Shown in pieces: positions 1 to 42,221 of a stretch of 42,221 bases of DNA (position 1 is the first letter of the stretch; each line of letters starts with the position of its first letter). Source of the DNA: a virus (Duplodnaviria > Caudoviricetes); IMG/VR virus record IMGVR_UViG_3300037722_000144, positions 1-42,221 of that record; one strand, written 5' to 3'. A program made the position numbers and the translations under genes. Below the pieces are notes generated by a model that was given only the letters and a program-made list of their open reading frames with translations, ran no database searches and was not told where the DNA came from.

Positions 1-208
1 GTAATGTTCCAGTAACCGATGCTATTTCAACTGTTATTAATATTCCTGCGGGTGAAATTGCAATTAAATTTAATGGTCCGGATCCAAAACTTCCAGATGA
101 TTTGATAGAAATTCAAAAACTTTGGGAAAGAGAGGAAGGAATTGACCCTTATTTTCCTATGACTAGAGTTAATTCTCTTTCTCAACAATTAGCTGGAACT
201 GAACTTAG
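1..208. repeat. Terminal direct repeat, copy 1 (circularisation overlap)
   Basis: 1-208 matches 42014-42221 except position 82 (A) vs 42095 (G); it lies inside a CDS. Confidence 0.95.
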
Positions 209-548
209 TCAGTTTGGAGTATATGTTTGGGAATCTCAAGAAATTAAGTTTCTTCCTGCAAGTCGAGATAATGATATTAAAATTGAATACATTAGAAATT
301 TATTCTCACCCGCAGTAGATGCAAATTCTCCGATTAATGTTGTAAATGCTGCATCATTTTTAGAATTTAAGAATGCAGCGTTATGTGCTAGATATATAGG
401 TGAAAATACAACGCGTGCGGATTCGTTAGATGGTCAGGCTATTTTAGCACTAGATATGGCAACAGGGATTAGTAGTAAAGGGAGGCAAAGTATTATTACG
501 CGTCGTAGACCTTTTCGTGCGACTTATAAAAGAAGGTATGTTGGTTAG
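1..548 (+). CDS. Putative head-tail adaptor/connector protein, 3' part (gene starts at 41875 and wraps; about 228 aa)
   Basis: Frame is continuous with ATG at 41875 (MQLLAGEIFDISAALLND...) through the overlap; position between capsid and tail-stabilisation genes; function inferred. Confidence 0.6.
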   Translation, partial: NVPVTDAISTVINIPAGEIAIKFNGPDPKLPDDLIEIQKLWEREEGIDPYFPMTRVNSLSQQLAGTELSQFGVYVWESQEIKFLPASRDNDIKIEYIRNLFSPAVDANSPINVVNAASFLEFKNAALCARYIGENTTRADSLDGQAILALDMATGISSKGRQSIITRRRPFRATYKRRYVG

Positions 549-605
549 TTTTTAGTTAAACTCTCTGGCGTAGTAATACGCTGGTTATAGAACTGGAGAG
601 ATACA

Positions 606-1460
606 ATGTCAATTCCTGGAGTTTGGAATTCACTTAGACGTGGCGCGTATAATGGTGCAGCAATTGGTTATCCTTTTGCAGGTAGAAGTTATTATGTAGG
701 TGCGGGAGCACCTGTAGGAGTTGGAATTGAAAGAGTTAATACTATTCAAGATGCTGTAAATTTAATGATTGCTAAAGATGTCCTAACTTTAGGACCAGGA
801 AGTTATGACGAAGCTGTTGTAATTCCTGTGGGGTTGGATAATATTACGATTATGGGTGCAGGTAATCGTGGTGACATTGGTATTGCACCTGCGGCAACAG
901 ATGCAATTGCATTAGTTATCGAGGGTAGTGCAGCAAATAGGACACAGGGAATTACTCTTATTAATGTAGGATTAGAAGGTAATGGAGATGGTGGTGGTTT
1001 ACACGTTCTAGGAAATATTCGTAGAATTCGCGCATATGGTTGCAAGTTTGAGGGTGGTGCTTTTGCTGTTAAATTAGAAAGTAGTGCTGCTGGTTCAATT
1101 GGAGATACAATTTTTGATGATGTTGAATTAGCATGGACTACGAAGGCATTTCTATTGACAGTATCCGGCGGAGGCGACCCTGTTACGCAAACCCTCTTGA
1201 AAAATAGTTTACTTCACAACTATTCATCACATGGAGTTGATGTGGATGCAACTTTTGCTGCTGATTTGTGGATTGTGAATAATGATTTTATGGACCAAGA
1301 GGACGGGTCTGAACCTTCAGCTTTTTATGTTGATGCTGCTGAAGCTGGAACTACTGGAGGACTTTACAATAATAGGATTCCAGATGTTACAGCTAAAATT
1401 TCAGTAGCAGCGGGAGTTGAGAGAGTTGGAAACAATTACCAAGATGGAACATTAACTTAA
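606..1460 (+). CDS. Virion protein with right-handed beta-helix (pectin lyase-like) fold
   Basis: TIQDAVN...DVLTLGPGSYDEAVVI N-terminal motif followed by G/N-rich beta-strand repeats; GGAG RBS. Confidence 0.65.
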   Translation: MSIPGVWNSLRRGAYNGAAIGYPFAGRSYYVGAGAPVGVGIERVNTIQDAVNLMIAKDVLTLGPGSYDEAVVIPVGLDNITIMGAGNRGDIGIAPAATDAIALVIEGSAANRTQGITLINVGLEGNGDGGGLHVLGNIRRIRAYGCKFEGGAFAVKLESSAAGSIGDTIFDDVELAWTTKAFLLTVSGGGDPVTQTLLKNSLLHNYSSHGVDVDATFAADLWIVNNDFMDQEDGSEPSAFYVDAAEAGTTGGLYNNRIPDVTAKISVAAGVERVGNNYQDGTLT

Positions 1461-1500
1461 TTTTTAAAGTGGGGCGCGTATACTTTATCACGCGTATATA

Positions 1501-1659
1501 ATGCCAGTAGAATATAATTGGTTTATCTATGACCGTAAGATTGAAATTATTTCTTTTCCCGAGTGGCTTACACAAAAGGATAATGAGAATTGGGAATTAA
1601 TTACTACTTGTGGTTTATGGGACATTTCTATTAGATGCATCTTCAGACGTAAAATATAA
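1501..1659 (+). CDS. Small hypothetical protein (52 aa, DUF4177-like WEL...IFRR pattern)
   Basis: ATG 1501 to TAA 1659 fills the gap and overlaps the next ATG; not in the ORF track. Confidence 0.5.
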   Translation: MPVEYNWFIYDRKIEIISFPEWLTQKDNENWELITTCGLWDISIRCIFRRKI

Positions 1660-7469: not shown

Positions 7470-8528
7470 ATGCCTAACAGTTTTCTTGGCGGAATTAGAA
7501 TGGCAAATATGTTTCGGGTTCCTAGAACCTATGATTATATTAATGATGATGATGGAAGAAGTGGGGAGGGAACTTCGCGCGTTTCTCAAATTGGAAGACA
7601 AGTTGCTAATCAGCAATCCCAACTCCCGGTTAATACTCAACCTGCCATGAATGTAGTTTATAAATCAAATTCTGAACCAGGAACTGAAATTCTTAGACAA
7701 TCTTCAGTTAGAGCATCTCCTGAACTTGAGTTAGAAAGGGAGAAAATTGCAGCTACTGCTGGATTACGTCAACAAGATATAGGCATTAGACAGCAACGCG
7801 CGGATGTTTATCAATTTAAGGCTCAAAATCCTAACATGAGAGTTTTAGTTGGTAAGGATGGGATGACGCGCGCTGTTAATCCTATTACTGGAGAAATACA
7901 GGAACTTGGTCAAACTGGATTAAGTGATGAAGAAGCTGCTAAATTAAATCAAACTTATCAAATGGAAAGAATAGAAGGACGTGGTAATATTCAAAGAGAA
8001 CTTCAAGAAACTCGTGGTAGACAGGAAATGGAACAAATTAATGAACGCGCGCGTTCTGGTATTGGTAGTTCTAGAGGATTATTACCTGCTCAAGAAGCCC
8101 AACAGTATCAAAATAAATATAATATTCTTATTAATCAAAGACCTGAATTGAGAGAATTTATAGAACTTGATTTTAATGGAATGCCTATTGTTGCTCCGTC
8201 AAGAGGACCATTAACTATATTTGGACGGGAAATGACTGGACCAAGAGGACCAACTGAAGAACAACGTAGGGAAATTAATGAATTTATTTTTGGTAATTCT
8301 GCTGGTCCTTCTGTCACTACTCCTACAATTACTAATCCTACAATGGAAACTGGAATAGGTACAGTAAAAATGAGAACACCCGATGGTAGGGAAATTGATA
8401 TTCCTGCTAATCAAGTTGATGAAGCTAAGAAACGTGATGCTATTATTATTTCTACTTCTTCAAAAATGTCAAAAATTAAACCTATGACTTCTTCACCAAG
8501 ATTTACTGCTGAACAAGTTAGAAGATAG
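7470..8528 (+). CDS. Putative internal virion / DNA ejection protein
   Basis: Charged helical protein of 352 aa; AAGGA RBS; synteny. Confidence 0.55.
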   Translation: MPNSFLGGIRMANMFRVPRTYDYINDDDGRSGEGTSRVSQIGRQVANQQSQLPVNTQPAMNVVYKSNSEPGTEILRQSSVRASPELELEREKIAATAGLRQQDIGIRQQRADVYQFKAQNPNMRVLVGKDGMTRAVNPITGEIQELGQTGLSDEEAAKLNQTYQMERIEGRGNIQRELQETRGRQEMEQINERARSGIGSSRGLLPAQEAQQYQNKYNILINQRPELREFIELDFNGMPIVAPSRGPLTIFGREMTGPRGPTEEQRREINEFIFGNSAGPSVTTPTITNPTMETGIGTVKMRTPDGREIDIPANQVDEAKKRDAIIISTSSKMSKIKPMTSSPRFTAEQVRR

Positions 8529-11146: not shown

Positions 11147-11275
11147 TTAGCCCTTTTCAAAAATGGCTTGACACACATTTACATATGTTTCAGCATTTAC
11201 TTCATATGTAGCAGGCCATTTTTCTTTTAATCCAAAAGTATTATTAAAATAATTTCGTAATTCATTTGAAGTCAT
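11147..11275 (-). CDS. Small hypothetical protein (42 aa), possibly truncated
   Basis: ATG overlaps the stop of the upstream gene (ATGA); MTSNELRNYFNNTFGLKEKWPATYEV... Confidence 0.45.
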   Translation of the reverse strand: MTSNELRNYFNNTFGLKEKWPATYEVNAETYVNVCQAIFEKG

Positions 11276-12561
11276 TTCATCTTACCTTCCATAAATCTTT
11301 TATATTCTTCATATACTACATCAGGCATTCTAAAAAGTATATTATTACCAACACTTTCAATTTTTACAACGCCTGCAACTTCCATACTCGCAACACATTC
11401 ATCCCAATCATTTGCATTACCTTGCATCCAATATTTTTTATTAAGTCCAGCGCGAGTTATCATATGATTGTCGCGTCGCATTAATTCTTCGATTAGTAAA
11501 GTCTTTCTAACTGCATTTGAAGCATCATTATTATCAGCACTTTTACCGAGAGTCGCGCGTCTGACATTACCTACTAATTTCTCACAAAGTGTAATTGCTT
11601 CTTCAAGAGCTTCTAAACTTATTTCTAATTTAGGTTCTGCTGCTAAAGAAATTAAAATAGCAACTTTTAATACAGAATCTCCGAATCTACCAAGAATTCC
11701 TGTTGTATCTTCTATTAATGATTCATCCCAATCTTTTATAAATCCTTCATACCAATTATCGTATCTTAATCCAACTTCTGAAAAGAATACATCACGTTCT
11801 TTCTTTCTACCACGTTTAATTCTTTTATATTTAAATATTCCCTTTTCTTCAAGAGATGAAAAAGGTTCAATAGCTCCCCTAAGTTTTGCAAGTTCATGTA
11901 AATATCCTGCTGAAGCCTTATAATCAATCGGTTCATCTAAAGGATATGCAAGACTATTAATTTGATTTCGTTGTTCTTCATAAATGATAAAAGTGCGCGC
12001 GAAATATCCCCCCTTGACTGCAATTCTATCTATAAATCCTTCTGCCATTGCTTCATTAGTAGCAGTAAGCATTGTTACTGTTGGTGCTTTAATATCGAAT
12101 GTTTCCATTTTCAAAAGACTTCGCCATTCTGCTACATTATAATTTCTATCATATAAATCAGTAAGAAGTTTAATTGCTGTAGGGTCTTCAACGATACTAG
12201 AAGTTAATTCAGAAGAACAAATAAAAATAGTAGATTTACTTTGTATTTTTCCTCCTGGCATGGACTTAGCTTGTCCCATTTCCTTGAGAATACCTTGAAT
12301 ACTGGAACGTCCTGAAATAATTTCAGTATTATTTACAGCTTGCACCATTTGTTTTGCCATAGATACGGCCGGACCCTTTTTTAAACCCGACCGCGCATGT
12401 AGCATTACATATATATTTGGATAAAGATTATAAATTTGACGACCTAACCATATATTATCTTTTAAAATTGCTGATATTGCTGCTAATGCTGACCAGCGCC
12501 AAAAAGAAAGAGGTGTTTCTAACTCTGAATGTTGGTCTACGAGGTCTGATAACCAGCTCAT
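11272..12561 (-). CDS. DUF3987/YfjI-like P-loop protein, putative replicative helicase
   Basis: ETPLSFWRWSALAAIS...LYPNIYVMLHARSGLKK, SSEL, TMLTAT, GGYFAR motifs; adjacent to the polymerase. Confidence 0.7.
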   Translation of the reverse strand: MSWLSDLVDQHSELETPLSFWRWSALAAISAILKDNIWLGRQIYNLYPNIYVMLHARSGLKKGPAVSMAKQMVQAVNNTEIISGRSSIQGILKEMGQAKSMPGGKIQSKSTIFICSSELTSSIVEDPTAIKLLTDLYDRNYNVAEWRSLLKMETFDIKAPTVTMLTATNEAMAEGFIDRIAVKGGYFARTFIIYEEQRNQINSLAYPLDEPIDYKASAGYLHELAKLRGAIEPFSSLEEKGIFKYKRIKRGRKKERDVFFSEVGLRYDNWYEGFIKDWDESLIEDTTGILGRFGDSVLKVAILISLAAEPKLEISLEALEEAITLCEKLVGNVRRATLGKSADNNDASNAVRKTLLIEELMRRDNHMITRAGLNKKYWMQGNANDWDECVASMEVAGVVKIESVGNNILFRMPDVVYEEYKRFMEGKMK

Positions 12562-12950
12562 GAATCATATTTCATAATCGTGTTCGTAATTTTTTTGATG
12601 ATGGCATGAATTTCTTCATCATTATAAGGAAGATATTCATGTTCGAAAATACGGAAAAGAGCTTTTAATTCTTTAAGAGATAACCATAATCCTGGTTCAG
12701 GACTTCTATCAGATGTTATAATATTAGATTGTTTTATTTCCTTATTATAAAGTTCTAATTTACTTTCAGGATAATACCAATAGTCAGGTGCCCAATCTTC
12801 CTCAAATATTACTTTACAGATTATTGCACCATTTGGAATATTTCTAATAAATTGGTCATTTGTTCTAACAATTGTTATTAATCCATGACAGTATCTATCT
12901 CCATCTAACATTTTAATTCTGTCACCTGGTTTCATTGTTTTATCTCCCAA
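12558..12950 (-). CDS. Hypothetical protein
   Basis: ORF coupled to neighbours; probable start at MKPGDRIK (12935). Confidence 0.6.
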   Translation of the reverse strand: MGDKTMKPGDRIKMLDGDRYCHGLITIVRTNDQFIRNIPNGAIICKVIFEEDWAPDYWYYPESKLELYNKEIKQSNIITSDRSPEPGLWLSLKELKALFRIFEHEYLPYNDEEIHAIIKKITNTIMKYDS

Positions 12951-15900
12951 TCCCTATAAATTATATTAGTTAATTGAGATTCTTCCTTCCTTTCTTGATA
13001 TAAAAATTCTTCTGTCATATTACGTGGTATACTTAGAGATTCTATTACTTTAGGTGTAGTAGGAATTATAACTTCTCGAATTTTAAATTTATTTAGTTCC
13101 TGATAATTATAACCTAATTCAATTTCACATGGAATAACAAGTGGATTACGTGGTAATGAACAGAATTCAAAATCAATAGGCTTTTCAAATTCTTCTTTAA
13201 TTTGTGGTGCTATTTCATTTATAAAACGTTCTTCTATTTCGTATAGTAATGAATCGTGGGATTCAACAATTGGAATTAATTTAAGTTTATTACGAATACG
13301 TAATGCTGAGGCTTTAGTATTATCACTAATTGTGCGTTGGGGAATATATGAAAATGCCATTCTAAATAATTCATCACCCCATCTTTCAAAAAACTGACGT
13401 TTACCACCTGTTTTAGAATCTATACCATAAGGACGCGGAGCAGTAAGATATCGTTTATCGACTTCCAAACATTTGATAATTCCAGCATGGAATACCGAAC
13501 GTATTCTAGGTTGCTTCATATGGAAAATCTTAAGCGCGCGGTCTGCTACTGCTTCTGTAATTGCAATTGGAATTTTATATTTTCTTGCTTGAGTATTAGT
13601 TTCTACAGCAGCTCGTCTTTTTCCGGCTCCAAGGTGTCCCGCGTGTCTTAAAGTATTATGTGTTATAATAAAATCATCTGTAATATAACAATGGTCTTCA
13701 GAATCCACTGAAATACATTGACATTCTATCTCACGTGTCTTTTCAAGAGAAATAATATTTCTTGCTAAATTATATTTAGTTTTTGCGTTCCATCTTTCCC
13801 ATCTTTCTGCTTTTCTAGATAATTTAAATGGATTTAATTGTCTTATATTTATAAATATTCTATTAGATTTTCTGCCCTCTTTTATTTCTCCTTTATAAGT
13901 GTATTTGGGTATTCTATTAGTTTGATTAGCTACTCCCCCTAACGATCTTACTAAGTTAATTACATCTGTTGCTAATAAATTTGAAGAAGTTGAAAATTCT
14001 AATCCATTACCAAATTCTTGTATAGTTCCATCAGTATCTAATAAGCCCCTAAGTATTTCTAATCTAATTTCAAGAGAATTAAATTTATATATTTCTGGTA
14101 TAAATTTTTCATGGGAGTGCTTACCACCTAAACCTAATTCATTTAAAATTGGTCTAATGCCTGATATTCTAATAGATTTATCATCAGAACTGCCAAGTTT
14201 TTCATATCCTAATTTAGTTATTAATTCTTGAATGATTTCTTCATCAACTGAAAATAAACTACATTGATGAGGAGAAGTAAAGTTTCCATCTCCTATTAAA
14301 AGTCCTAAAATATAGGGGTCTATTGGAACTTCTTGGTAACTAAACCACATTGCATTATTCATTAATAAGGAATATTTAGGATTGCCCCTACTATTTTTTA
14401 ATTTTAGATTAAGAATATCCTTAAGTTCTTTAATTTGATAAATTTCTCGTGGTCTTTCCCAAATTGCTTGAATAGGCCAAAGATGTTCCTTACATGACTC
14501 AACTTCAGAGCCATCACTAAGTTTAATTTTATATACTTCTTTAATTCCCTGTGAGAATATTCCAGTTACTAATGAAATACCAAACCGAGAATTACATATT
14601 TCATCTCCTATTTGAATATCTTTCATTAATTTCCAACCAATAGGTGTTAAAATCTTACTATCTAATGGTTGAGCCTTGCCAAGAAATCTTTCTGGACATT
14701 CATAACCTAATATTTTTTTAGAATACTGTTCTTCAGTTCCACCTAAAAACCATGATGTAGTATAAGCATGATAATCTTTAATATCAATATCTATTAAAGC
14801 CTGTTCATCATTAGCAAGTCTAAAAACTACGCGCGCTTCCGCTTGTGCGGAATCAGCTTGAATAAATATATTACCTCGCGCGGGAACGTATTGTGACCTA
14901 ATATCCTGACCGATATCTCCGTGTTTAGTTATTGTTTGAAATGCTGTTCCTAATGCTTTTCTTTTTTTCTTATTCTCATCATCTCTATATTCAAAATATG
15001 GTCTAATAGGAGGTTCTAATTGTCCTGTGCTAGTTCTACCAGTTTCAAGACAGAGAAAATAAGTAGTTTTCATTTTGCCATCATAATCAGGCATTGCCAT
15101 TAAGTAAGTGCTTATTGTTTTTTCTACTCTTCTCTTTTCTAAAATAATTTCTACAATTCTACGTTTTTTAGAATCTGTAAATGATTGTAAGTTTAATAAA
15201 CTTGTAAGTTCTTCTTCACCTGTTCCACTTCGTATAGGACATTTGAGATTCTCAAATAATAATATTTTAACTTGCTTAGGTGAATTCACATTAACATGAT
15301 CACCTACTAATGAGAATAATTCATGCTGAAGATTTTCTGACCATGTAATGTATTTTTGAAACAGTGCTTCTTTCTTTTCATTATCAATATGAAAACCTTG
15401 AGATTCTATTTCTAAGTAAAGACCATGAAGGTGCATTATGAAATTTTCGTAGTAATCTTTTAAGTTTAAAGTGTCTAAATCAATATCCATTGCTAAGTCA
15501 ATTTCTTTAGTCACGCAAGCATCGCGCGCGTTATATTTATATAAATCGTCTATACTTTGCTTAGTAATATCAAAGTTTGCTCCTTCGTCTTTATAGTATG
15601 GTTCTCGGGTATAGATAGAAGTATTGAATGCAAGATTTTTGGGAAGTTCTGGATTAATTGCGAATGCTTTTAACATTGTATCTGATGTTAGTTTCTTAAT
15701 AATGAATCCCAATCTTTTAATTTTATCTTGATCATATTTAAAGTTCTGTCCCACTATTTCGTGTTTTGCTAATAATTCTGATAACATTATCCAGATATTG
15801 ATTAATTCTGAACTATGAATATTAGAGATACCGCGCACATTCCAGAGGGGAACTGAGATTCCTTCATATGGAGTAAAAGCAATACCAATGCAGGAAGGAA

Positions 15901-26785: not shown

Positions 26786-26826
26786 GTCTGTTTTCCTTTC
26801 GCGCGTTCATTCGCGTTTGATTCCCT

Positions 26827-26855: not shown

Positions 26856-26865
26856 AGAGAAATCG

Positions 26866-26908: not shown

Positions 26909-26928
26909 GCTGTGCTGGTGTCATTGCT

Positions 26929-27162: not shown

Positions 27163-27163
27163 G

Positions 27164-27352
27164 CTACTTTCGTGGAAGTGACTGTGCGCGTTTCCAGCCT
27201 TCGTCTGTGACGTAGCAGGCTTCGCACGTGTCAGTTGACGCTGCCTCTCTGCTTTCTCTGGGTAGTCCTACCCATTGGTCGGTATGCGCGCTACTGGCAC
27301 ATACTAGAACGTAGCCGTCTGAGGTTAGTAGCACTTTTCGTGATTCATGCAT
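27164..27352 (-). CDS. Hypothetical early protein
   Basis: Probable start at MHESRK (27352), overlapping the upstream stop; the ORF track extends it to 27397. Confidence 0.45.
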   Translation of the reverse strand: MHESRKVLLTSDGYVLVCASSAHTDQWVGLPRESREAASTDTCEACYVTDEGWKRAQSLPRK

Positions 27353-27521
27353 CGTCCCTGTGCTCCAAGTGATGGTTGATTGTGTCGATAAGGTCATAGG
27401 CTGACTGACGAATAGCTAGGATGCTATCTCGGTCAGTCTTGTTCAGCCATTGCTGCATTGCACTTGCTAAGCTTTGATGGCCAAGACTAAGGTCAAGAAT
27501 CAGACAATACAGTTTATACAT
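27345..27521 (-). CDS. Hypothetical early protein (58 aa)
   Basis: AGGAG RBS then MYKLYCLILDLSLGH...; not in the ORF track. Confidence 0.6.
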   Translation of the reverse strand: MYKLYCLILDLSLGHQSLASAMQQWLNKTDRDSILAIRQSAYDLIDTINHHLEHRDDA

Positions 27522-27576
27522 GTCTTATACTCCTGTTTGTTGAGAGTCTAATACACTGCCTAGAATTGGTAGATAG

Positions 27577-27843
27577 TTACTTGATATTTCTTAGCTTGAT
27601 GTTTCCGAGATGGTCGAATAATTGAGTCAGCATTGCATCATCAAGAGAATATGCAATGATTCGCGCCCAATAAAGTTCATTAGACGCGCAAATGAAATTT
27701 CCGTTTCCCTGTCCATCATCTTCGTAGATAGAAAAACGAAATTCGTCTTCCGTGTTTTTTCCGTTGTCATGAATTGCATAACCTTTTTCGCCACTCAATT
27801 CATGTTGATATTTGTCGAAGTTTTCAGTCCAGTCGTAAACCAT
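27577..27843 (-). CDS. Hypothetical early protein (repeat-flanked cassette 2)
   Basis: AGGAG RBS at the end of repeat A. Confidence 0.7.
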   Translation of the reverse strand: MVYDWTENFDKYQHELSGEKGYAIHDNGKNTEDEFRFSIYEDDGQGNGNFICASNELYWARIIAYSLDDAMLTQLFDHLGNIKLRNIK

Positions 27844-27929
27844 AGCAGACTCCTATTCCCTAGGCAGTCTACTAGACTCTCAATTGGTAAGAGTCTAATA
27901 CACTGCCTAGAATTGAAAGTTACGGTTAG

Positions 27930-28139
27930 TTACTTTGCGCTAACGATGATACCATCCTTTACTACACATGCTGCATACCATCTGTGTGGCTTCGGATAGT
28001 GCGGACCTTCAATCACGATGTTTCCATTTTGAGTGACAGGAAACATTTCATTTGGATTGTAGGGCATCAGATTGTTACCAAGCTTCACTGATATGAGAAA
28101 ATCCTTTTTTGTCGCGTAGTTTGGATTAACGTATGCCAT
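27930..28139 (-). CDS. Hypothetical early protein (repeat-flanked cassette 1; EGPHYPKPHRWYA motif)
   Basis: GAGG RBS then ATG at 28139. Confidence 0.75.
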   Translation of the reverse strand: MAYVNPNYATKKDFLISVKLGNNLMPYNPNEMFPVTQNGNIVIEGPHYPKPHRWYAACVVKDGIIVSAK

Positions 28140-28227
28140 GGGCAAGACCTCTATTCCCTAGGCAGTCTACTAGACTCTCACCTGATATTCAGTTGTCAAC
28201 CGTCGTCAACCGCGATACCAACCATAC

Positions 28228-28244
28228 TGCACTCGCCATGCCAA
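28228..28244 (-). promoter_or_regulatory. Putative sigma54 (-24/-12) promoter
   Basis: TTGGCATGGCGAGTGCA, GG-N10-GC spacing, upstream of the early gene block. Confidence 0.55.
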
Positions 28245-28275
28245 CATTTTCCTAATGTTTTTGAATTTACATATC

Positions 28276-28306
28276 TCAGATTTTCTGAATTTTTCAGATT
28301 TTCTGA
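28276..28306. promoter_or_regulatory. Two tandem palindromic boxes TCAGA-TTT-TCTGA (putative activator/operator sites)
   Basis: Identical 13-mers at 28276-28288 and 28294-28306. Confidence 0.5.
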
Positions 28307-28425
28307 GTTTTTATGGTAGAATGTCAGCCAGGTATAAAATGTTAGGGTATATGCCCGTATACAACACTTTTAGGGTCCTGCTGCATAGTGAACCGGAGGG
28401 GAATATTAACCAAACTTGACGGAGA

Positions 28426-28767
28426 CTATACGGAGTCTATTTTTACTTTAGGATTAACTTTAAGACTACCCTGGGGGGTAGGTTGTAATGTTATTTCAGA
28501 AACTTTTGAACATACATTGCATAAATATTGAGTAGGTCCAATTTGTTCTAATAGATTAGGAGTAGCAGAGGTGGTGCTACAATGCGGGCATTTAAGAATT
28601 TTATGTTCAGTTAGTGGCTTAGAATATCCGCGTAACCTATCATTATGAAAATTTGAACGACATTTATCTGAACAGAATTTCTGTGGATTTTTACTAAATT
28701 GTCGCTTCGGCTCTAGGGGGCCGCCGCAGTTCTCGCATGGAGGGTAAGTCGTTCCTTCGCGTTTCAT
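28426..28767 (-). CDS. Double zinc-finger protein
   Basis: CENCG...KFCSDKCR and CPHC...CNVC; consensus promoter directly upstream. Confidence 0.75.
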   Translation of the reverse strand: MKREGTTYPPCENCGGPLEPKRQFSKNPQKFCSDKCRSNFHNDRLRGYSKPLTEHKILKCPHCSTTSATPNLLEQIGPTQYLCNVCSKVSEITLQPTPQGSLKVNPKVKIDSV

Positions 28768-28781
28768 GCCGTCTAAACGCG

Positions 28782-28810
28782 ATTATACGCCTTTCAAGGG
28801 GGGTTGTCAA
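28782..28810 (-). promoter_or_regulatory. Perfect consensus sigma70 promoter
   Basis: TTGACA-17 nt-TATAAT on the - strand. Confidence 0.85.
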
Positions 28811-28889
28811 GGGAAATCGGTTGTGAGACAATCGGGGAAAGGGGTCGAACCGCGTATTTTATTGTAATGTTTAGTTAGAGAATATTACT

Positions 28890-29432
28890 ATGATGGGCAT
28901 TTGTAACGATGAAGATTTTGAATTAGAAATTAATAGTCTTACTAAGATTGAACCTGAAATTATTCCCATGCCTGATAAGGGTAGAGGTTATGGTAATGGT
29001 CAAGTTCCTGAGTCACTACGAAAAATCATAGGTGAAGAATCTATTGAAGGAAATAGACAATCAGCATTAGAATTAGGGCGCGCGTTTGGTATTTCCGATT
29101 CCTCAGTTTCTGCCTATTCTGCTGGTTCTACTTCGACTAGTTCTTATCAGAGTCCTGTTAGAAGTTTAAATTCTCATCTTAATAAAGTTAAGGAAAAGAT
29201 TCAGTCTAAAGCGAGAAGAAGATTAACTTTAGCACTCGATAGTATTACTCCTGAAAAATTACAAGAAGCTAATTTACGCGAAGCAAGCGGAGTTGCGCGT
29301 GACATGAGTGTGATTATAAAAAATTTGGAACCTGAATCTAATAAGGAGGAAAATAATAATACTCAATTTGTAATCTATGCTCCTAGTTTTCGTGATGAAC
29401 GAAGTTTTGACATTATTCGAGTTAATGAATAA
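28890..29432 (+). CDS. Putative terminase small subunit (HTH)
   Basis: HTH-like ALELGRAFGISDSSVSAY, helical core, C-terminal beta strand; first gene of the late strand. Confidence 0.5.
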   Translation: MMGICNDEDFELEINSLTKIEPEIIPMPDKGRGYGNGQVPESLRKIIGEESIEGNRQSALELGRAFGISDSSVSAYSAGSTSTSSYQSPVRSLNSHLNKVKEKIQSKARRRLTLALDSITPEKLQEANLREASGVARDMSVIIKNLEPESNKEENNNTQFVIYAPSFRDERSFDIIRVNE

Positions 29433-29755
29433 TGCTAGAAGAACCCATTGGAGTTTCATTACTAGCATTACTAATTATTAAAGAATTATTCTCTTACTTA
29501 AAAGCTCATGATGGTAAGGAGCATAGGAAATCAGTAGGAGATGAATTAGAGAGAACATTAAAAGGAAGTATAATACCAATAATGAATCAACAAGTATTGA
29601 TACTAAATGAATTAAAAAAATTAGCCGTAAATGCACATGATGCTCATATTCATTTACAATCAGGTATTGATTCATTAAAGATAACCGACGAACGAATTCA
29701 AACAGATGTTAGTAATATTAGTCATAAATTACAAGGTAGAAATTCAGAATGGTAG
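29432..29755 (+). CDS. Membrane-anchored coiled-coil protein (possibly lysis-related)
   Basis: N-terminal hydrophobic segment plus coiled coil. Confidence 0.55.
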   Translation: MLEEPIGVSLLALLIIKELFSYLKAHDGKEHRKSVGDELERTLKGSIIPIMNQQVLILNELKKLAVNAHDAHIHLQSGIDSLKITDERIQTDVSNISHKLQGRNSEW

Positions 29756-29764
29756 GAGTTTAGT

Positions 29765-30109
29765 ATGAGTCAAGAACGAGTTTCAAGAGTTATTGCAGTT
29801 TTACTAGCTGCTGCAAATTCTACTAAAGTATTAGTAGCTGCTCCTGCTGCTGATTCAGGATTATCAATTTACATTCAAAGAATTCATTGGTCAATTGTAA
29901 CTGCTGCTGCACAACTTACTAAAGTTGGTGAAGATGGCGGTGGAGAAGATGACCAATTGTTAGAATTTGCAGAGTCAGCCGCGGGAAATGGAACGCGTGA
30001 TTTTACGGGTGTAGGATTTAAACTTCCTGCAGAAACTGCTTTATCAGCTAAACCTGCTTCTGCCGGTCCAGCTATTCATTTTGTTGTTGAATATACGATA
30101 GAGTTGTAA
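29765..30109 (+). CDS. Hypothetical virion-type protein
   Basis: AGGAG RBS; Ala-rich beta pattern. Confidence 0.6.
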   Translation: MSQERVSRVIAVLLAAANSTKVLVAAPAADSGLSIYIQRIHWSIVTAAAQLTKVGEDGGGEDDQLLEFAESAAGNGTRDFTGVGFKLPAETALSAKPASAGPAIHFVVEYTIEL

Positions 30110-30151
30110 TGTTTATTAGTCTGTTGGAACATTCTCTAAGACGGAAACAAT

Positions 30152-30493
30152 ATGATTAAAAAAATTCTATTTACAATTTTATTCATTTTAATTAGTTCAT
30201 TAGCATATGCACAAGTATTTCCTATTACTGTTACAGTAGTATGGGATGCTCCAGTAGAAACAGATCAAGTAACTAATCATACTTTAACATTTAATGGTTC
30301 TTCTATTACAGTTCTTCCTGCTAAATGTAATACTACCGAATGTTCCCAACAAATTACAATTCCACAAGCTGGAACTTATTCGGTTGCAGTAACAGCTACT
30401 AATATGTGGGGAACTAGCACTCCTACAGTATTAACTTTTAATGCTCGTTCTCCTGGTAATTCTGGACAACTTCGAATAAGGATTTCACAGTGA
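30152..30493 (+). CDS. Signal-peptide protein with fibronectin type III-like domain
   Basis: MIKKILFTILFILISSLAYA; VTVVWDAP...GTYSVAVTATN.WGTS. Confidence 0.75.
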   Translation: MIKKILFTILFILISSLAYAQVFPITVTVVWDAPVETDQVTNHTLTFNGSSITVLPAKCNTTECSQQITIPQAGTYSVAVTATNMWGTSTPTVLTFNARSPGNSGQLRIRISQ

Positions 30494-30756
30494 TTTGGTT
30501 ATCAGCAGCTTTAAAAATCTTTCCTTTAATCATTGGAGCAATTCATGCAGTTGAAAGGATTGCAGGAGATAAAAAAGGAAAAGATAAGCAAGATGCTGCT
30601 ATTGATGCAATTGGTGCAATGATTAAGTCTGTTGAAGTTGGAATAAGTAAAGAAATCATAGATGAAACTAAATTTCAAGAATTACTTCGTAAACTAATAG
30701 ATGATTATGTAGCTGTTCAAAATTTCATTCGAGATTTTCGGAGTAATAATGAATAA
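30490..30756 (+). CDS. Hypothetical protein
   Basis: Coupled ORF with an amphipathic N-terminus. Confidence 0.65.
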   Translation: MIWLSAALKIFPLIIGAIHAVERIAGDKKGKDKQDAAIDAIGAMIKSVEVGISKEIIDETKFQELLRKLIDDYVAVQNFIRDFRSNNE

Positions 30757-30922
30757 AATTTCAAAAGCTATTGCAGGTGGATTAGGTGCAGCGATTGCTA
30801 AAACTATTATGTTATTTATTCCAGAAATGAATATAGAGTCTAGAGAAGCTGTAGAATATGTAATTTATACTGTTATTACGGGATTAGCAGTTTACATTGC
30901 TCCTGCTAATAAGGGACTATAG
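30749..30922 (+). CDS. Putative holin (57 aa, two hydrophobic segments)
   Basis: MNKISKAIAGGLGAAIAKTIMLFIP...YVIYTVITGLAVYIAPANKGL; GGAG RBS; not in the ORF track. Confidence 0.6.
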   Translation: MNKISKAIAGGLGAAIAKTIMLFIPEMNIESREAVEYVIYTVITGLAVYIAPANKGL

Positions 30923-30950
30923 TTTAGGATTCTTTTTAATAAGAAATAAA

Positions 30951-33548
30951 ATGTTCCCTAGTAGACTAGAAGGATTTAAGCCATCGAAAAGACAAGAGAA
31001 ATTTCTATCTCTACCTACAACTATTCAAGAAGCTGCATATGCTGGAGGCGCAGGAAGTGGAAAAGCTCTAGCTTTAGATACTATTATTCCAACTTCCCAA
31101 GGTTATAAAAAAATAGAAGATGTTCATGTTGGTGATTACGTTTATAACCATGAAGGTTGGCCTACTGTTGTTTTTGCTGAATCTCCAATATTTGTAGACC
31201 ATGAATGTTTCAAGGTAACTCTTGATTCTGGTATAATAATTACAGCAGATGCAGACCATCTTTGGGTAGTTCATAAAAATCAGACAAATAGAAATAAACT
31301 AGGTCGATATTCTATTTTATCTACTAAGCAATTATTTGAAAGTAAAGATAAATGGTCTATCATAGTTTCAGAACCTCTCAAAAAAGAAAATAAAAATTAT
31401 CCTCTAGACCCTTATACTCTTGGTGCTTGGTTAGGAGATGGTTCAAGACAAGGAGCTATAATTACTTGTGCTGACTTGGAAATTGTTAATAGAATAAATC
31501 AAACTCATCAAGTAACTGAACATAATACAAAATATTCATATGGTATTCTAAAAATACTTGAACCTCTTCGGAATTTGAATTTACTCGGTAACAAACATAT
31601 TCCAGATTTATATTTTGAATTAGAATTTGATTTAAGATTAGCCTTACTTCAGGGATTAATGGATACTGATGGAACTATTAATGCTAGTGGAACTGGAATA
31701 GAATTGTCATTGTCAGATGAAAGATTAGCAAAAGATGTTTTAAAATTAATTTATTCACTTGGAATTAAGGCTTCTTGCACAATTAATAAATCTGTTTTGA
31801 ATGGTAAAAATTATAAAAATAGGTATAGAATTAAATTTGCAACTAAAATTCCAGTATTTAGTTTAAATCGTAAGGTTGAAAGACATGAGGTTGTTAGAAA
31901 CATTTCAAATAATAATACAACTAGAAATAAATGGCATTATATTAAATCAATTGAAATAACTGAAACTGTCCCAACAAAATGTTTACAAGTATTAGGTGGA
32001 ATATATTTAGTAACAGAAGCATGTATTCCTACACATAATACCGAAATACTTTTACTTTATGGTATTATTCATAAATGGCATGAATTTCCTACTTTTAAGC
32101 AACTCTTTCTGAGGAGAACATATCCAGAAATACGAGATGAAGTGTGGCCGCGCGCGTCGTTCCTTTATCGTAAGTTTGGTGCTACACCTAATCAACAGTC
32201 AATGACTTGGACTTTTCCATCGGGTGCGCGTATCATTTTTGGTCATTGTGAAAATGATAACGATGTTCACCGATATGATACTACTCAGATTAATCTTTTT
32301 ACTCCTGATGAAGTAACATCACTAAGCGAGTTTATTTATCTTTATATATCATTGCAACGTGTTAGAACTGCTGATTCACGATTACCAGCAATTACGCGCG
32401 GTGCTGGAATGCCTGGGAATATTGGTCACTTATGGTTCAAGAAACGTTTTGTAGACCCTTGTAAGCAGGGTGGAAAAATAATTGTAGGTCGCGCGGGTAG
32501 GAAGAGATTTTTTATTCATTCTACTCTTGCAGATAATCCCGGTATTGACCCTAATTATAAGCAGTCCCTTGAAGCTATACCTGATGCTGCTGAAAGAAAT
32601 GCTAAACTTTATGGTAACTTTGATGCTTATCAAGGTCAAGTATTTGATGAGTTTAGAGATAGATCTATTCCATTAGAGCCTGAAAATGCCATTCATGTAA
32701 TCGAACCATTTGAAATTCCCGAATGGTGGCCTAGAATTATGGTAGGTGACTGGGGCTATGCTGCCATGACCTATCTTGGATTTTTTGCAATTTCTCCTAG
32801 TAAGAGAGTTTATCAATATCGTGAATTAGCATGGAGAAAAACTAAAATTGAAGAATGGGCACCTTCTGTAAAGTCACTATTAGATGGTGAGAATATAAAA
32901 TTAGTAAAATTTTGTAAATCAGCTGGACAAGAAAGAGGACAGGAACATACTATTCAACAACAAATTAGTGAAGCATTAGATAGGGAAATTGAATTAAGTA
33001 ATAATTCTCCCGGTTCGCGCGTTGCTGGTAAGATGCTTATTCACGAGTATCTACGTTGGAAATCTAAGGCTATTATACCAAGTTCAGAGACTCCAACTTA
33101 CAATGATGAACACGCGCGATTCATTCTTCGTAATAAGGGACTTGAACATTATAAGAATTATCTTGCTCAATTTGAACCTCCTGAAGAGGAAATTAATTTA
33201 CCAAAATTTCAAATATTTAAATGTAATGAAGAGAATCACGATGGACATCCCTTTTGTTGTCCTATAATGATTGATACTATTAAGGCTTGTTCTTATGATA
33301 AGAAGAGAATTGAAGATATTCAAGAATTTAATGGTGATGACCCTATTGACACACTTCGTTATGCACTTGATACCGTAGATTCTTACTTCGATGAAGCAAA
33401 TGATGAATTTCAGAAAGTTCAAAAGCAAGAACAACTGATTCAAAGATTGCAAGGTAGCCAAAATTTTACAGCATTTTATAATCAAAGTAGAGCATTAGAG
33501 TCTAATGATAGACCGCGTATGATTAGTCGATATCATAGGAGTAGATAA
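30951..33548 (+). CDS. terL: Terminase large subunit with intein
   Basis: YAGGAGSGK/T Walker A, LRRTYPE, DEVT Walker B, GDWGY and DDPIDTLRY nuclease motifs; likely start ATG 30951. Confidence 0.93.
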   Translation: MFPSRLEGFKPSKRQEKFLSLPTTIQEAAYAGGAGSGKALALDTIIPTSQGYKKIEDVHVGDYVYNHEGWPTVVFAESPIFVDHECFKVTLDSGIIITADADHLWVVHKNQTNRNKLGRYSILSTKQLFESKDKWSIIVSEPLKKENKNYPLDPYTLGAWLGDGSRQGAIITCADLEIVNRINQTHQVTEHNTKYSYGILKILEPLRNLNLLGNKHIPDLYFELEFDLRLALLQGLMDTDGTINASGTGIELSLSDERLAKDVLKLIYSLGIKASCTINKSVLNGKNYKNRYRIKFATKIPVFSLNRKVERHEVVRNISNNNTTRNKWHYIKSIEITETVPTKCLQVLGGIYLVTEACIPTHNTEILLLYGIIHKWHEFPTFKQLFLRRTYPEIRDEVWPRASFLYRKFGATPNQQSMTWTFPSGARIIFGHCENDNDVHRYDTTQINLFTPDEVTSLSEFIYLYISLQRVRTADSRLPAITRGAGMPGNIGHLWFKKRFVDPCKQGGKIIVGRAGRKRFFIHSTLADNPGIDPNYKQSLEAIPDAAERNAKLYGNFDAYQGQVFDEFRDRSIPLEPENAIHVIEPFEIPEWWPRIMVGDWGYAAMTYLGFFAISPSKRVYQYRELAWRKTKIEEWAPSVKSLLDGENIKLVKFCKSAGQERGQEHTIQQQISEALDREIELSNNSPGSRVAGKMLIHEYLRWKSKAIIPSSETPTYNDEHARFILRNKGLEHYKNYLAQFEPPEEEINLPKFQIFKCNEENHDGHPFCCPIMIDTIKACSYDKKRIEDIQEFNGDDPIDTLRYALDTVDSYFDEANDEFQKVQKQEQLIQRLQGSQNFTAFYNQSRALESNDRPRMISRYHRSR
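31065..32039 (+). mobile_element. Class 3 intein with LAGLIDADG homing endonuclease in the terminase Walker A (325 aa)
   Basis: Starts ALALDTIIPT, ends PTHN before T; DHLW, TKCLQV; LGAWLGDG and LQGLMDTDG. Confidence 0.92.
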
Positions 33549-34729: not shown

Positions 34730-37038
34730 AAAAAGAATTATCTGAAAATATTAAACAACGATTAAAAGAACTTGTTCGTAATGCAGAACAAGAAGACCAG
34801 GCTGTGCGCGAACGACAAATTAGACAGTGGAGACAACTTAAATTATTTTGGGAAGGTTTTCAGAAAGTTTATTATAGTGAAGTTGCGCATGATTGGAGAA
34901 TTTATGATGAAACTGCAAATGAACCAACTGACCAAGGTTCATATGATAAACCTATAAATGTATTTAGAGCTTATTTAGAATCATTAATTGCAGCATTATC
35001 GGTTACAGTCCCTTCAGTTAAATGTTATCCTGATGATGCTGATAATACTTTAGATTTAGCAACAGCGCGCGCTGGTGATAAAATTGCTCAATTAATTTAT
35101 CGTCATAATGATGTTACTCTTCTTTGGCTTCATGCTCTTTTTATTTTTATGACTGAGGGATTAGTAGCTTGTTATGCTTATCCTAAGGAAGATAAAGAAT
35201 ATGGAACTTATGAAGAGAAAGAATATAAGGATGATATTGAGAATCATGAGTATTCTCGTTGTCCCGAATGCCAAGAATTACTAGATGATAAATTAATTAC
35301 TCCTGAACAATTAGAAGCTAAGGAGAAAGAATTAGAAGATGAATTCATGCCTGACGAGGAACCTAGAATTGAAAAAGAAGAATACTGTCCAGCCTGTGCA
35401 AAGTTAGTTTTACCGGAAAATTCGCGTGAATCTCTTACAATTACTAGATTAATAGGAATTACTAATAAACCTAAGTCTAGAATTTGCACGGAAGTTTATG
35501 GTGGTCTTTATGTTAAAGTTCCTAACTATGCTAAAAGACAGGAACAATGTCCGTATCTAATTTATTCATTTGAAACTAATTATGCATTTGTATTAGAACA
35601 ATTTCCTCATTTGAAAGATAAACTAAAGACTACAGGTGCAAATGGTGCTTATGACCAATACGATCAATGGGGAAGATTAAATCCACAATATAGAGGTGAA
35701 TATCCTATTAATGTTGTTACGATGAAATATGCTTGGCTTAGACCAGCACTTTTTCATACATTAAAAGATGAAGATGAAACTGAAGAACTTAAGCGTCTTT
35801 TTCCAAATGGTGCAAAAGTAATTTTAGCAAATGATGATTTTGCGGAAGCCTATAATGAGAATTTAGATGATTGTTGGACTCTTTCTCATAATCCATTATC
35901 TGATTATTTGCATCATGACCCACTTGGTTTATTACTTGTTAGTGTTCAAGAAATTACTAATGATTTAATTTCATTGGTTATTCAAACTATTGAACATGGT
36001 ATTTCTTTACTGTTTGCTGACCCAGGCTCTCTTAACTTTAAAGCATTTGAAAATACAGAAGTTACTCCAGGTGGAGTATTTCCTGCTAGCACTAAAACAG
36101 GAAAGAGTTTACAAGAATCATTTTATGATGTTAAACCGGCGCATCTTTCTCCTGAAGTATTACCATTCTTTCAGACTATTCAATCTTTAGGACAAATGGT
36201 ATCAGGTGCGCTTCCTAGTTTATTCGGAGGTTCAATAAAAGGTAGTGATACCGCGTCAGAATATGCAATGAGTCGCGCGCAAGCATTACAGAGATTACAG
36301 ACTACTTGGAAAATCTTTACCATTTGGTGGAAGAATGTTCAAGGTAAAGTTATTCCAATGTATATTAAGGAAGTAAAAGAAGACGAACGGGATGTTCAAC
36401 AGGATGATAGTGGTAATTTTATTAATGTATTCATTCGTAAAGCTGAACTAGAAGGAAAAATTGGTAAAATTGAATTAGAAACTTCTGAAAATCTTCCTAT
36501 TACTTGGGCGCAACAGAAGGATGCTTATATGCAACTTCTTATGACTAGTAATCCAGAAATTCTTAAAATTATTGCTTCTCCTGAGAATCTTCCTATTCTA
36601 CGTCAAGCTATTGGACTTGTTGACCTTTATGTTCCCGGTGAAGATGATAGAGAAAAGCAATATGATGAAATTAAACTTCTTCTTAACTCTGAACCCATCA
36701 TGGAACCTCCAGAGCAGGGAGAAGTTCAAGAAGCATTATTACTAGGAATGCCTCCTCCACAAGAGTTAGAATTACCATCTATTGAACCCGAAGAAATTGA
36801 TAATCATATTGTTCATTATGAAACTTGTAGGAAATGGGCAGTTTCTGAAGCTGGAAGACAGACTAAGACTGATAATCCTTTAGGTTATAAGAACGTTCTT
36901 TTACATGCTAAGATGCATCAGATTATGATGACTCAAACTATTTCTCCGCAAGAGGAAATTGGTGTGGTTCCTGCGGAAAAACCCAATGCAAATCGAAACA
37001 CACCCATAACCGGAGAAGAAAATGTTCAGACTGTTTAA
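34726..37038 (+). CDS. Portal protein
   Basis: 770 aa between terminase and scaffold/capsid genes; largely helical; assignment mainly by synteny and size. Confidence 0.8.
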   Translation: MKKELSENIKQRLKELVRNAEQEDQAVRERQIRQWRQLKLFWEGFQKVYYSEVAHDWRIYDETANEPTDQGSYDKPINVFRAYLESLIAALSVTVPSVKCYPDDADNTLDLATARAGDKIAQLIYRHNDVTLLWLHALFIFMTEGLVACYAYPKEDKEYGTYEEKEYKDDIENHEYSRCPECQELLDDKLITPEQLEAKEKELEDEFMPDEEPRIEKEEYCPACAKLVLPENSRESLTITRLIGITNKPKSRICTEVYGGLYVKVPNYAKRQEQCPYLIYSFETNYAFVLEQFPHLKDKLKTTGANGAYDQYDQWGRLNPQYRGEYPINVVTMKYAWLRPALFHTLKDEDETEELKRLFPNGAKVILANDDFAEAYNENLDDCWTLSHNPLSDYLHHDPLGLLLVSVQEITNDLISLVIQTIEHGISLLFADPGSLNFKAFENTEVTPGGVFPASTKTGKSLQESFYDVKPAHLSPEVLPFFQTIQSLGQMVSGALPSLFGGSIKGSDTASEYAMSRAQALQRLQTTWKIFTIWWKNVQGKVIPMYIKEVKEDERDVQQDDSGNFINVFIRKAELEGKIGKIELETSENLPITWAQQKDAYMQLLMTSNPEILKIIASPENLPILRQAIGLVDLYVPGEDDREKQYDEIKLLLNSEPIMEPPEQGEVQEALLLGMPPPQELELPSIEPEEIDNHIVHYETCRKWAVSEAGRQTKTDNPLGYKNVLLHAKMHQIMMTQTISPQEEIGVVPAEKPNANRNTPITGEENVQTV

Positions 37039-40788: not shown

Positions 40789-40789
40789 T

Positions 40790-41479
40790 ATGAGTAGTGT
40801 AGGAGTATTTCCAGGATTTGTTGACCATCGTAGGACCATACGCGCGCCTACTAATCCACTTGATAAATCAACTGTAGTTTCAATTTTTAATAAAGAAATT
40901 AAAGAAGTTAAACCTACTATTCAGCCTGGAATTTTTCATCTTCGTCCAGGTTCATATGAAAAACCTTCTCTTTTAGTAGTAGGAACTTCATCGTGGTGGA
41001 GAGATACTGATGAAAATCAGCCCCTTCTTGAAATTCCTAATTCTTCAATTCAAGTAGCTGATAGTATTGTAAAAGATTATTGTAATGGAATTCTTGCTTG
41101 TGATATGAGTAATAATATGCCGGGACTTTTTTTCATTCCCGGTGAAATTTCTCTTATTGATATTAAAACTAAGCATAAGGTAGCATTAGATACTGCCAAA
41201 AGAAAGCAGGATAATTGGTTCCGCGCGTTAGTGGAATTAGCAGATGGATTGTGGGCGCGCACTAATGGTAATCCACTAACAATTTCAGATGATATGAGAA
41301 CAGCCGCGCGTGAATTGGGACTTATTAGTAAAGAATGGATGAAAAATTTTCAAGCCTATGAACTTATTCGTTGTGCTGCTTGCGGTTCAATGAAAAATGG
41401 TCAATTTCCGATTTGTCCTACTTGTAGAGCAATTGACCAAAGTCATCCAGAAGCTAAGAATCTTAAGTTTGCTCAGTAA
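40790..41479 (+). CDS. Hypothetical protein with C-terminal zinc ribbon
   Basis: Likely start ATG 40790 after GGAG; CAAC...CPTC. Confidence 0.7.
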   Translation: MSSVGVFPGFVDHRRTIRAPTNPLDKSTVVSIFNKEIKEVKPTIQPGIFHLRPGSYEKPSLLVVGTSSWWRDTDENQPLLEIPNSSIQVADSIVKDYCNGILACDMSNNMPGLFFIPGEISLIDIKTKHKVALDTAKRKQDNWFRALVELADGLWARTNGNPLTISDDMRTAARELGLISKEWMKNFQAYELIRCAACGSMKNGQFPICPTCRAIDQSHPEAKNLKFAQ

Positions 41480-41519
41480 TTGTTATGACTTGGAATGATA
41501 TTAAACTAAGAGAAAAAAC

Positions 41520-41864
41520 ATGGCAGTAACATCAACAAGAATTGTAAGGATAGGTTTTTCAGGAGATGTTGTTGCTCCTGATTTAACTTATGCTGCGGCT
41601 GATAATGCTGCATCGCCGGGAATGATTGAAACTAAAGCTCTAGTTAGTGGCTTTAATTCTATTACAGTTCCAACTGATTCTGAATCTGTTACCATAATTC
41701 CTCCTTCTGCTAATGTTGTAACTTTAACTTTAAAGGGTGTTACTGGAGATACTGGAATTGGAATTCATCTGACAGACCCTACAACAATAGGATTAGCAGC
41801 CGCGCAATCCACGATTGGAATTACTACTAGTGATGTAGTTACTGTTAGATTAATTTGGGCTTAA
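41520..41864 (+). CDS. Small virion structural protein
   Basis: T/V/S-rich beta protein in the structural operon. Confidence 0.6.
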   Translation: MAVTSTRIVRIGFSGDVVAPDLTYAAADNAASPGMIETKALVSGFNSITVPTDSESVTIIPPSANVVTLTLKGVTGDTGIGIHLTDPTTIGLAAAQSTIGITTSDVVTVRLIWA

Positions 41865-41874
41865 TAGGAAGAAT

Positions 41875-42221
41875 ATGCAATTATTAGCGGGAGAAATTTT
41901 CGATATATCTGCTGCGCTTCTTAATGATACTGCTAAGACTGTATATACTAATGCTGCCCAATTACCGTATCTTAATTTAGCATTGCAAAATTTGCAGGAA
42001 AATTTTGAACTTAGTAATGTTCCAGTAACCGATGCTATTTCAACTGTTATTAATATTCCTGCGGGTGAAATTGCAATTAAATTTAATGGTCCGGGTCCAA
42101 AACTTCCAGATGATTTGATAGAAATTCAAAAACTTTGGGAAAGAGAGGAAGGAATTGACCCTTATTTTCCTATGACTAGAGTTAATTCTCTTTCTCAACA
42201 ATTAGCTGGAACTGAACTTAG
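41875..42221 (+). CDS. Putative head-tail adaptor protein, 5' part (continues across the junction to 548)
   Basis: AGGA RBS, ATG 41875, open to the window end and in frame with ORF 102-548. Confidence 0.65.
   Translation, partial: MQLLAGEIFDISAALLNDTAKTVYTNAAQLPYLNLALQNLQENFELSNVPVTDAISTVINIPAGEIAIKFNGPGPKLPDDLIEIQKLWEREEGIDPYFPMTRVNSLSQQLAGTEL
42014..42221. repeat. Terminal direct repeat, copy 2
   Basis: Matches 1-208 with one mismatch. Confidence 0.95.

Follow-up and report, generated by a model that had tools for sequence, protein, structure and literature searches.

A short GC-only word written through an uncultured phage genome and tied to its replication arm

The window and its recurrent word

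The stretch of DNA described here, which we call the window, is the whole of virus record IMGVR_UViG_3300037722_000144 (positions 1 to 42,221; GC content 34.9%), and our subject is a short word, GCGCG or its complement CGCGC, that recurs throughout it. The first 208 bases recur at the end (1–208 and 42014–42221, one mismatch), so this record, classed as linear, closes into a circle; its completeness is estimated by CheckV at 91%. The plus strand carries a late arm with the terminase (containing an intein), portal, capsid, tail, and internal proteins, and the minus strand an early arm with an SNF2 helicase, an exonuclease, Sak4, a cold-shock domain, a UDG-PolA with an intein, and a DUF3987 protein.

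The replication genes lie within the early arm. The DUF3987 protein (11272–12561, minus strand; Pfam PF13148) was modelled with a predicted local distance difference test (pLDDT) score of 85.5; the model shows an AAA+ helicase of MCM type that carries a C-terminal winged helix and lacks a primase domain. Its top fold matches are MCM subunits, and databases call the protein a 'primase'. A single-sequence fold reached a pLDDT of only 34 and was discarded, and a sequence search of solved structures with the helicase gave nothing beyond weak winged-helix matches. Directly upstream is the UDG-fused A-family DNA polymerase with its intein (12932–16564, minus strand; Pfam UDG, DNA_pol_A, and LAGLIDADG_3). 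[quoted passage not shown] A gene bearing a helix-turn-helix (HTH) motif (28890–29432, plus strand), which position and alignment suggest is small-terminase-like, adjoins this arm.

CGCG ranks first among tetramers (z 16.9), with 159 overlapping copies at 114 loci where base composition predicts 39.1 copies and dinucleotide content 24.3, and CGCGCG is found 45 times against 1.2 expected. A preliminary description of this DNA, made by eye, had reported such an excess at 110–115 loci, and the count bears it out; its background figures (about 33% GC, about 30 CGCG and one CGCGCG expected) become 34.9%, 39.1, and 1.2. The alternating runs that it quoted are present at 8045 (ACGCGCGCGT), 15522 (TCGCGCGCGT), 14830, and 14876, while CCGCGCGCGT lies at 32148, one base from the position given. 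The excess persists when amino-acid sequence and codon usage are held fixed: in 300 synonymous-codon shuffles of the 61 genes, coding CGCG stands at 148 against 37.6 (3.9-fold; shuffle maximum 50), CGCGCG at 43 against 1.5 (28-fold), and CGCGC and GCGCG at 80 against 8.7 and 74 against 7.6 (each about ninefold). Shuffling gene by gene gives 3.4-fold for CGCG and 15-fold for CGCGCG.

The signal is at the level of DNA, since all codon frames (53/45/50), both strands equally, and spacers carry the word, and we therefore rejected a cause in translation or mRNA. Intergenic DNA, where the preliminary description had also noticed the words, has the density of genes, with 12 CGCG in 3,377 bases; of the CGC and GCG codons from which it said that the words often arise, 62 of 73 and 65 of 108 lie in or beside CGCG.

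Across the whole window (1–42221, both strands) there are 161 pentamers and 86 maximal alternating runs of 5–8 bases. Among them are CGCGCGCG in an internal virion protein gene (8046–8053), the polymerase gene (15523–15530), and the large terminase gene (32149–32156), and GCGCGCGC in the portal gene (35065–35072). Once the runs of at least five bases are masked, bare CGCG remains at about twofold and bare GCGC at 0.9-fold, so the unit is the pentamer rather than CGCG itself. Codon-aware maximum-entropy fits agree: the pentamer alone (negative log-likelihood 10816) beats CGCG alone (10831), and a joint fit (10789) gives weights of 3.6 to CGCG, 3.4 to the pentamer, and 1.5 to GCGC, with saturation at seven bases. 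Of the opportunities to write the word silently, 81 of 446 are used for the pentamer and 40 of 121 for CGCGCG. Spacing, which the preliminary description proposed checking for periodicity, is near random (coefficient of variation 0.93 versus 1.08, P 0.08), with slightly fewer close pairs (P 0.02).

Short palindromes are expected to be purged by phages; the window purges GATC (10 in genes versus 113 in synonymous-codon shuffles) and GTAC (3 versus 100), yet hoards GCGCG. This avoidance is likely the footprint of host restriction. In the whole window GATC occurs 11 times and GTAC 4 times, AAGCTT and CTGCAG are also low, and GATC and/or GTAC are wholly absent from many relatives (20–46 kb), irrespective of word class. 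Relatives also carry an excess of GACCC/GGTCA, which we discounted as a side effect of avoiding GATC.

Words of the relatives

A capsid search gave 302 related stretches, of which 80 were kept, and a polymerase search gave 35. From both we took 31 long records, picked for length and hence not a random sample, with one 62-kb record (G406) used over 22–62 kb only. Word classes were assigned by eye from clustering; G404 counts as 'other' in the correlation, strand, and polarity analyses and as class B in the trees. Class A, with 13 genomes including the window, holds GCGCG/CGCGC at 3.0–9.8-fold. Class B, with 11 genomes (G405, G406, G409–G412, G414, G417, G418, G438, and G443), carries a strand-polar YGCGWGG together with weaker CGCG, the pentamer standing at 1.8–4.1-fold. 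The other 8 genomes favour AGCCG, AGCGGC, GCGGCG, CGGCC, AGCGC/CGATC, or a weak word, with the pentamer at 0.1–3.5-fold. Each lineage of related phages thus has its own GC-rich excess. Three class B genomes (G414, G443, and G412) have a second enriched word, ACCGGG/CCCGG, and the 62-kb G406 record, with two DUF3987 helicase genes, may be a join of two phage genomes.

Homologous structural genes are written in their own genome's word. Over nine shared structural gene families, the window has 34 GCGCG and 2 AGCCG and G407 has 1 and 25, respectively; G447 has 5 GCGCG and 17 GCGGC. Literature searches aimed at such a word excess in phages listed no account of it, within a collection short of most subscription journals and without supplements.

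Agreement of the word with the replication arm

Mantel correlations between word profile and protein identity (21–30 genomes per gene), which kinship inflates, are 0.65 for the helicase, 0.64 for the polymerase, 0.66 for SNF2, 0.68 for the exonuclease, 0.63 for Sak4, and 0.66 for the SSB. Structural genes give lower values: 0.18 for the capsid, 0.23 for the portal, 0.04 for the tail, and −0.02 for the scaffold, the range with the large terminase included being −0.02 to 0.31. Quick trees, whose agreement with the word kinship likewise inflates, need 2–5 changes of word class for genes of the replication arm and the small-terminase-like gene (SSB-like 2, the best; exonuclease 3; polymerase 4), about 10–14 with shuffled labels, and 11 for the capsid, 9 for the tail, 8 for the portal, and 7 for the large terminase.

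Particular clades make the same point. A supported tail-gene clade of the window, G443, G407, and G435 spans three word classes, and a supported capsid clade of the window, G443, G404, and G407 carries different words; in both, the words match the replication arms. Sister capsids with different words are in this sense a natural experiment for finding the reader. The word excess is genuine and pronounced, runs through the whole family, and is linked with the replication arm. The preliminary description held that any responsible enzyme must be host-encoded, a conclusion that does not follow given that the word follows phage replication genes.

Upkeep between relatives and effects on proteins

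Fourfold-degenerate C/G sites inside and outside each lineage's word were compared between relatives at 76–89% identity, the class A pairs being fragments of relatives rather than the window. Sites are kept more often inside the word: 44 of 68 versus 186 of 494 outside in class A, 124 of 193 versus 3,188 of 6,747 in class B, and 89 of 116 versus 549 of 1,112 in the GCGGC lineage. Control words showed no such effect at fourfold-degenerate sites. Changes that leave the word are fewer both for transitions (0.24 versus 0.40) and for transversions (0.12 versus 0.22 in class A; 0.09 versus 0.23 in class B); the AGCCG lineage is an exception in which only transitions fall. Each pair entered this test in both directions and the pairs lack independence, so the P values are overstated. 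The words are maintained between close relatives, and selection or biased repair would both fit.

The word also reaches protein sequence. In ten class A proteomes Arg-Ala is enriched (558 versus 438, z 6.2), as is Ala-Arg (505 versus 439, z 3.5); other proteomes show no enrichment of either pair, and the window alone is not significant. Neisseria DNA uptake sequences and Pasteurellaceae uptake signal sequences are likewise lineage dialects of one abundant word that alter protein sequence. The window's word shares this dialect pattern; however, it is much shorter, and we know of no uptake step for phage.

Strand polarity

YGCGWGG favours the late-sense strand in 11 of 11 class B genomes whatever the gene direction (244 versus 90), both in the late arm (118 versus 68) and in the early arm (126 versus 22). 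It stands every 1.4–3.8 kb or so on one strand, most strongly in the early arm, and as a Chi or primase site it is a stronger candidate than the word of the window. Class C words are symmetric and without polarity. Irrespective of transcription, silent sites of the late-sense strand show T enrichment in 31 of 32 genomes. This suggests that replication runs mainly one way; a lagging-strand template would look so. One candidate polar word in the window, CGCGTG (11 versus 1), was chosen post hoc and rejected, since it did not replicate in class A (P 0.12).

Host leads

Window DNA was found in sediment metagenomes in 14 of 14 runs among the matches listed, five of them possibly the source itself. 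Searches with the DNA, the capsid, and the portal turned up no cultured relative. Capsid relatives at 41–44% identity lie on four contigs of metagenome-assembled genomes from Acidobacteriota: one search gave three loci, and another gave 2 of 401 genomes, one of which the first had already returned. This makes Acidobacteriota a lead only as host. Positions 12001–32000 of the window matched the 401 genomes mostly at tRNAs, with no spacer-like match. Twenty 20-kb stretches from Acidobacteriota show no excess of CGCG, GCGCG, or CGCGCG, and two Acidobacteriota genomes sampled at 400 kb each show no family word enriched or skewed beyond about 1.2-fold; these may not be the hosts.

Priming as the preferred reading

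For the published systems compared below we draw on parts of the cited texts. Our preferred reading, held tentatively, is that the word marks sites read by the phage replication arm, predicted to be priming sites. The MCM-like helicase would unwind the DNA, and the A-family polymerase, which sits in the usual slot of a primase, would start strands on short G+C-only words together with the SSB or a recruited host primase. Such words are scarce by chance in an AT-rich genome, so selection would write them into silent and some amino-acid-changing positions, at about one run per 0.5 kb; after module exchange, structural genes would come to be written in the dialect that the new replication arm uses. 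The preliminary description had offered protein-read sites that mark, protect, or package the DNA as one option: the DNA-level signal, the upkeep between relatives, and the Arg-Ala/Ala-Arg shift favour reading by a protein, but nothing points to marking or protection.

No primase family was found among the 61 window proteins, and the polymerase occupies the slot usual for one. Kazlauskas et al. (PMC4889955) place DUF3987 proteins among the SF6 helicases and describe them as often having a primase fused to them or lying ahead; in the window it is a polymerase that precedes. A-family polymerases can prime with sequence preference (PMC7581432), the precedent being CCPol-MP of SCCmec (PMC7581432, PMC10061031), in which an A-family polymerase likewise lies beside a replicative helicase with no canonical primase, and CCPol shows a start-site preference. 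However, CCPol is without most of its exonuclease domain and needs MP, whereas the window's polymerase is full-length with a UDG domain and its priming is putative; the UDG-PolAs in the consulted part of Czernecki et al. (PMC10201439) are described without a priming role.

Known primase sites provide a second comparison. The T7 gp4 primase recognizes 5'-(G/T)2GTC-3' (PMC12839067, PMC8599759), and the NrS-1 primase-polymerase uses TTTGGTTA and GTGG (PMC8718748). Like these, the window's word is short, has a core with graded flanks, and is scattered in genes, and a phage replication protein is its presumed reader. In contrast, no DnaG or AEP primase was found in the window, its word is not strand-biased, and a 10–30-fold genomic excess of sites is not reported in the consulted parts of those papers.

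Several observations weigh against priming. The window's word has no strand bias (78 versus 75), nor does it in class A as a whole (766 versus 762), even though strand skew in the window is clear; the bias towards a lagging-strand template expected of primase sites is seen in class B only, and the symmetry of class A is the main difficulty for both a priming and a Chi reading of the window's word. The spacing, as given above, is no more even than chance. The small-terminase-like gene follows the word too (0.67; 5 changes), as does an internal virion protein (4 changes; 21 genomes). The co-variation with replication genes is weak within classes A and B alone, where these genes give 0.21–0.34, the capsid 0.25, and an internal virion protein 0.51, the best value, and G438 and G433 shift position between replication-gene trees. 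With linked genes and labels common to kin, the data do not point to any one reader, and a residue scan for specificity positions, itself not decisive, found none. The full-length polymerase, unlike the truncated CCPol primase, counts here as well.

The trait is also not general to the polymerase-helicase module, since seven annotated phages with a distant pair (20–30% identity), PaP2 among them, have no CGCG or GCGCG excess; a GC-rich prophage (L082) has none either. Finally, the host could co-vary with the replication arm. A host primase would be compatible with the data: in a GC-rich host GCGCG is common by chance, so an enzyme that needs it would leave no trace there, while an AT-rich phage would come under selection to carry the word.

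A more specific form of the priming reading is that this is a large uncultured podophage family lacking a canonical primase, whose UDG-PolA self-primes on a GC-only word, each lineage having rewritten its genome and proteins in its own dialect; this we consider decidedly doubtful. Were it true, enzyme specificity could be predicted from a genome's word. Should the polymerase be the reader, it would be an A-family enzyme that primes itself in a sequence-specific manner and that DNA amplification might make use of, and would explain how synthesis starts in primase-less DUF3987 phages. A Chi-like or methylation-driven word would instead bring to light a host signal not known before among bacteria of soil and sediment. 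In both cases, the word is a hidden constraint on synonymous sites.

Alternative readings

The window's word does not belong with Chi, Vsr sites, or Z-DNA as these are defined; the readings modelled on them, and two others, differ in how far the evidence carries them. A Chi-like role, in which the word attenuates a helicase-nuclease tracking from DNA ends (host AddAB/RecBCD, or the phage exonuclease, here the candidate reader, with SNF2) and channels the ends into recombination, is possible but doubtful. Several family words resemble AGCGG and GCGCGTG, which we take to be Firmicutes Chi words, and the exonuclease tree needs few changes. The class B word, being asymmetric, seven bases long, and denser and more polar in the early arm than in the late, is of the kind expected, and its gradient resembles the end-clustered Chi of phage LLS (PMC12315714); LLS and MD8 also over-use a short GC-rich word in genes. 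The window's word is over-represented, as a Chi word is, but asymmetry and polarity are absent from the window and class A, and polarity from the class C words; a Sak4/exonuclease module of its own also sets the window apart from Chi-rich lambdoid phages, which are mostly without one (PMC12315714). Also unlike LLS and MD8, the word follows phage genes and corresponds to no known host Chi; in the 400-kb Acidobacteriota samples, which may not come from hosts, no family word is enriched or skewed.

Another reading follows Elhai's model for cyanobacterial HIP sites (PMC4390886), in which a host CGCG cytosine methyltransferase and G-meC-directed mismatch repair ratchet G-CGCG/CGCG-C into the genome without function; this seems unlikely. 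The model predicts GCGCG/CGCGC above CGCG, fixation at GCGCGC/CGCGCG, symmetry, random spacing, and protection from all substitutions, and every one of these is seen in class A, including extension of the core by a 5' G or 3' C. HIP1 and alternate HIPs are likewise GC-rich near-palindromes, about one per 0.5–1 kb, frame-independent, and with a G/C-extended core. In contrast, the window's word is in a phage without a methylase, relatives' words are asymmetric and polar, and no excess appears in sampled candidate hosts. Some class C words resemble GCSGC and CCSGG, which are presumably methylase sites. The model calls for an enzyme that is hypothetical here and for a host genome sharing the excess; of the 20 Acidobacteriota stretches, which may not come from hosts, not one shows it. 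As the preliminary description had stated, no methyltransferase appears in protein family scans of the window, and no cytosine C5 methylase was found among 184 accessory-family representatives (130–700 residues) of its relatives. The model further leaves the polar, asymmetric class B word and the link to replication genes unexplained, and word class is independent of GATC/GTAC avoidance. In a class A relative that does not avoid GATC (G435), a Dam-like adenine methylase gene lies beside the helicase (L207:1801–2226).

That the words are scattered binding sites, read by the small-terminase-like HTH protein or by some other double-stranded-DNA-binding protein of the phage that organizes or selects DNA for packaging, is quite unlikely. 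A packaging role would fit the gene at 28890, which travels with the word as closely as the replication genes do, and a dimeric binder would suit the strand symmetry of class A; however, no conserved column of the small-terminase-like protein shifts between classes A and B despite their different words. In a GC-rich host, moreover, the word would be more frequent in host DNA (8–332 per 20 kb) than in phage DNA and hence could not serve as a mark of self.

Vsr-type T:G repair at methylated CGCG, an option raised in the preliminary description, is very improbable. The reduced transitions out of the word are what it would produce, and it predicts depleted single-transition neighbours such as TGCG/CGCA; these stand at 0.80–1.04 of the codon null, a near-normal count that is not decisive alone because an AT-biased genome predicts weak depletion. 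The fall in transversions as well largely refutes it; in addition, CGCGCG transition neighbours are commoner than transversion neighbours, and bare CGCG is only about twofold enriched. Z-DNA-prone or hairpin-forming tracts are barely credible: the runs do alternate C and G and end neighbours that keep purine-pyrimidine alternation are favoured, but no run exceeds 8 bases and saturation comes at 7, there is no surplus of close pairs, alternating hexamers with 1–4 G/C and no CGCG stand at 0.66–0.83 of the null, and class B and C words do not alternate.

Further features of the window and its relatives

A tRNA-Leu(TAA) gene lies at 20322–20409 on the minus strand, and TTA is the window's commonest Leu codon (499 of 1,089); together they would fit an AT-rich phage in a GC-rich host. 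LAGLIDADG inteins in the polymerase (12932–16564) and the large terminase (30897–33548) are absent from most relatives. After its intein the polymerase reads K-T-L-R-H-A-G-H-L-G, which presumably places His at the position of Phe762 and Leu at that of Tyr766 in E. coli Pol I. Atlas searches with a zinc-finger protein at 25729 and with the capsid yielded nothing usable.

Accessory genes of relatives include a sigma-70 region 2 protein (L235:1925–2428), ThyX (L170:3204–3983), and a PEP-CTERM protein (L216:4251–5012), with weak ADP-ribosyltransferase-like matches at L203:8140–9156 and L243:1645–2544. A small HTH family lies upstream of the polymerase in 24 relatives and is not in the window. In Caulobacter phage Kuura (L253), GAGGGAC stands at about fourfold the codon null on both strands (30 versus 7) and is perhaps that phage's own word.

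The non-coding stretch 26040–26444, between early genes, contains a 23-base A run and G/C runs and may be an origin or terminus region. Strain comparison gave 134 single-nucleotide differences, of which the 40 listed were too small a basis for a test, and a form skipping 251 bases in 26909–27161, which removes a 77-codon open reading frame (26929–27162), is present in two other sediment runs.

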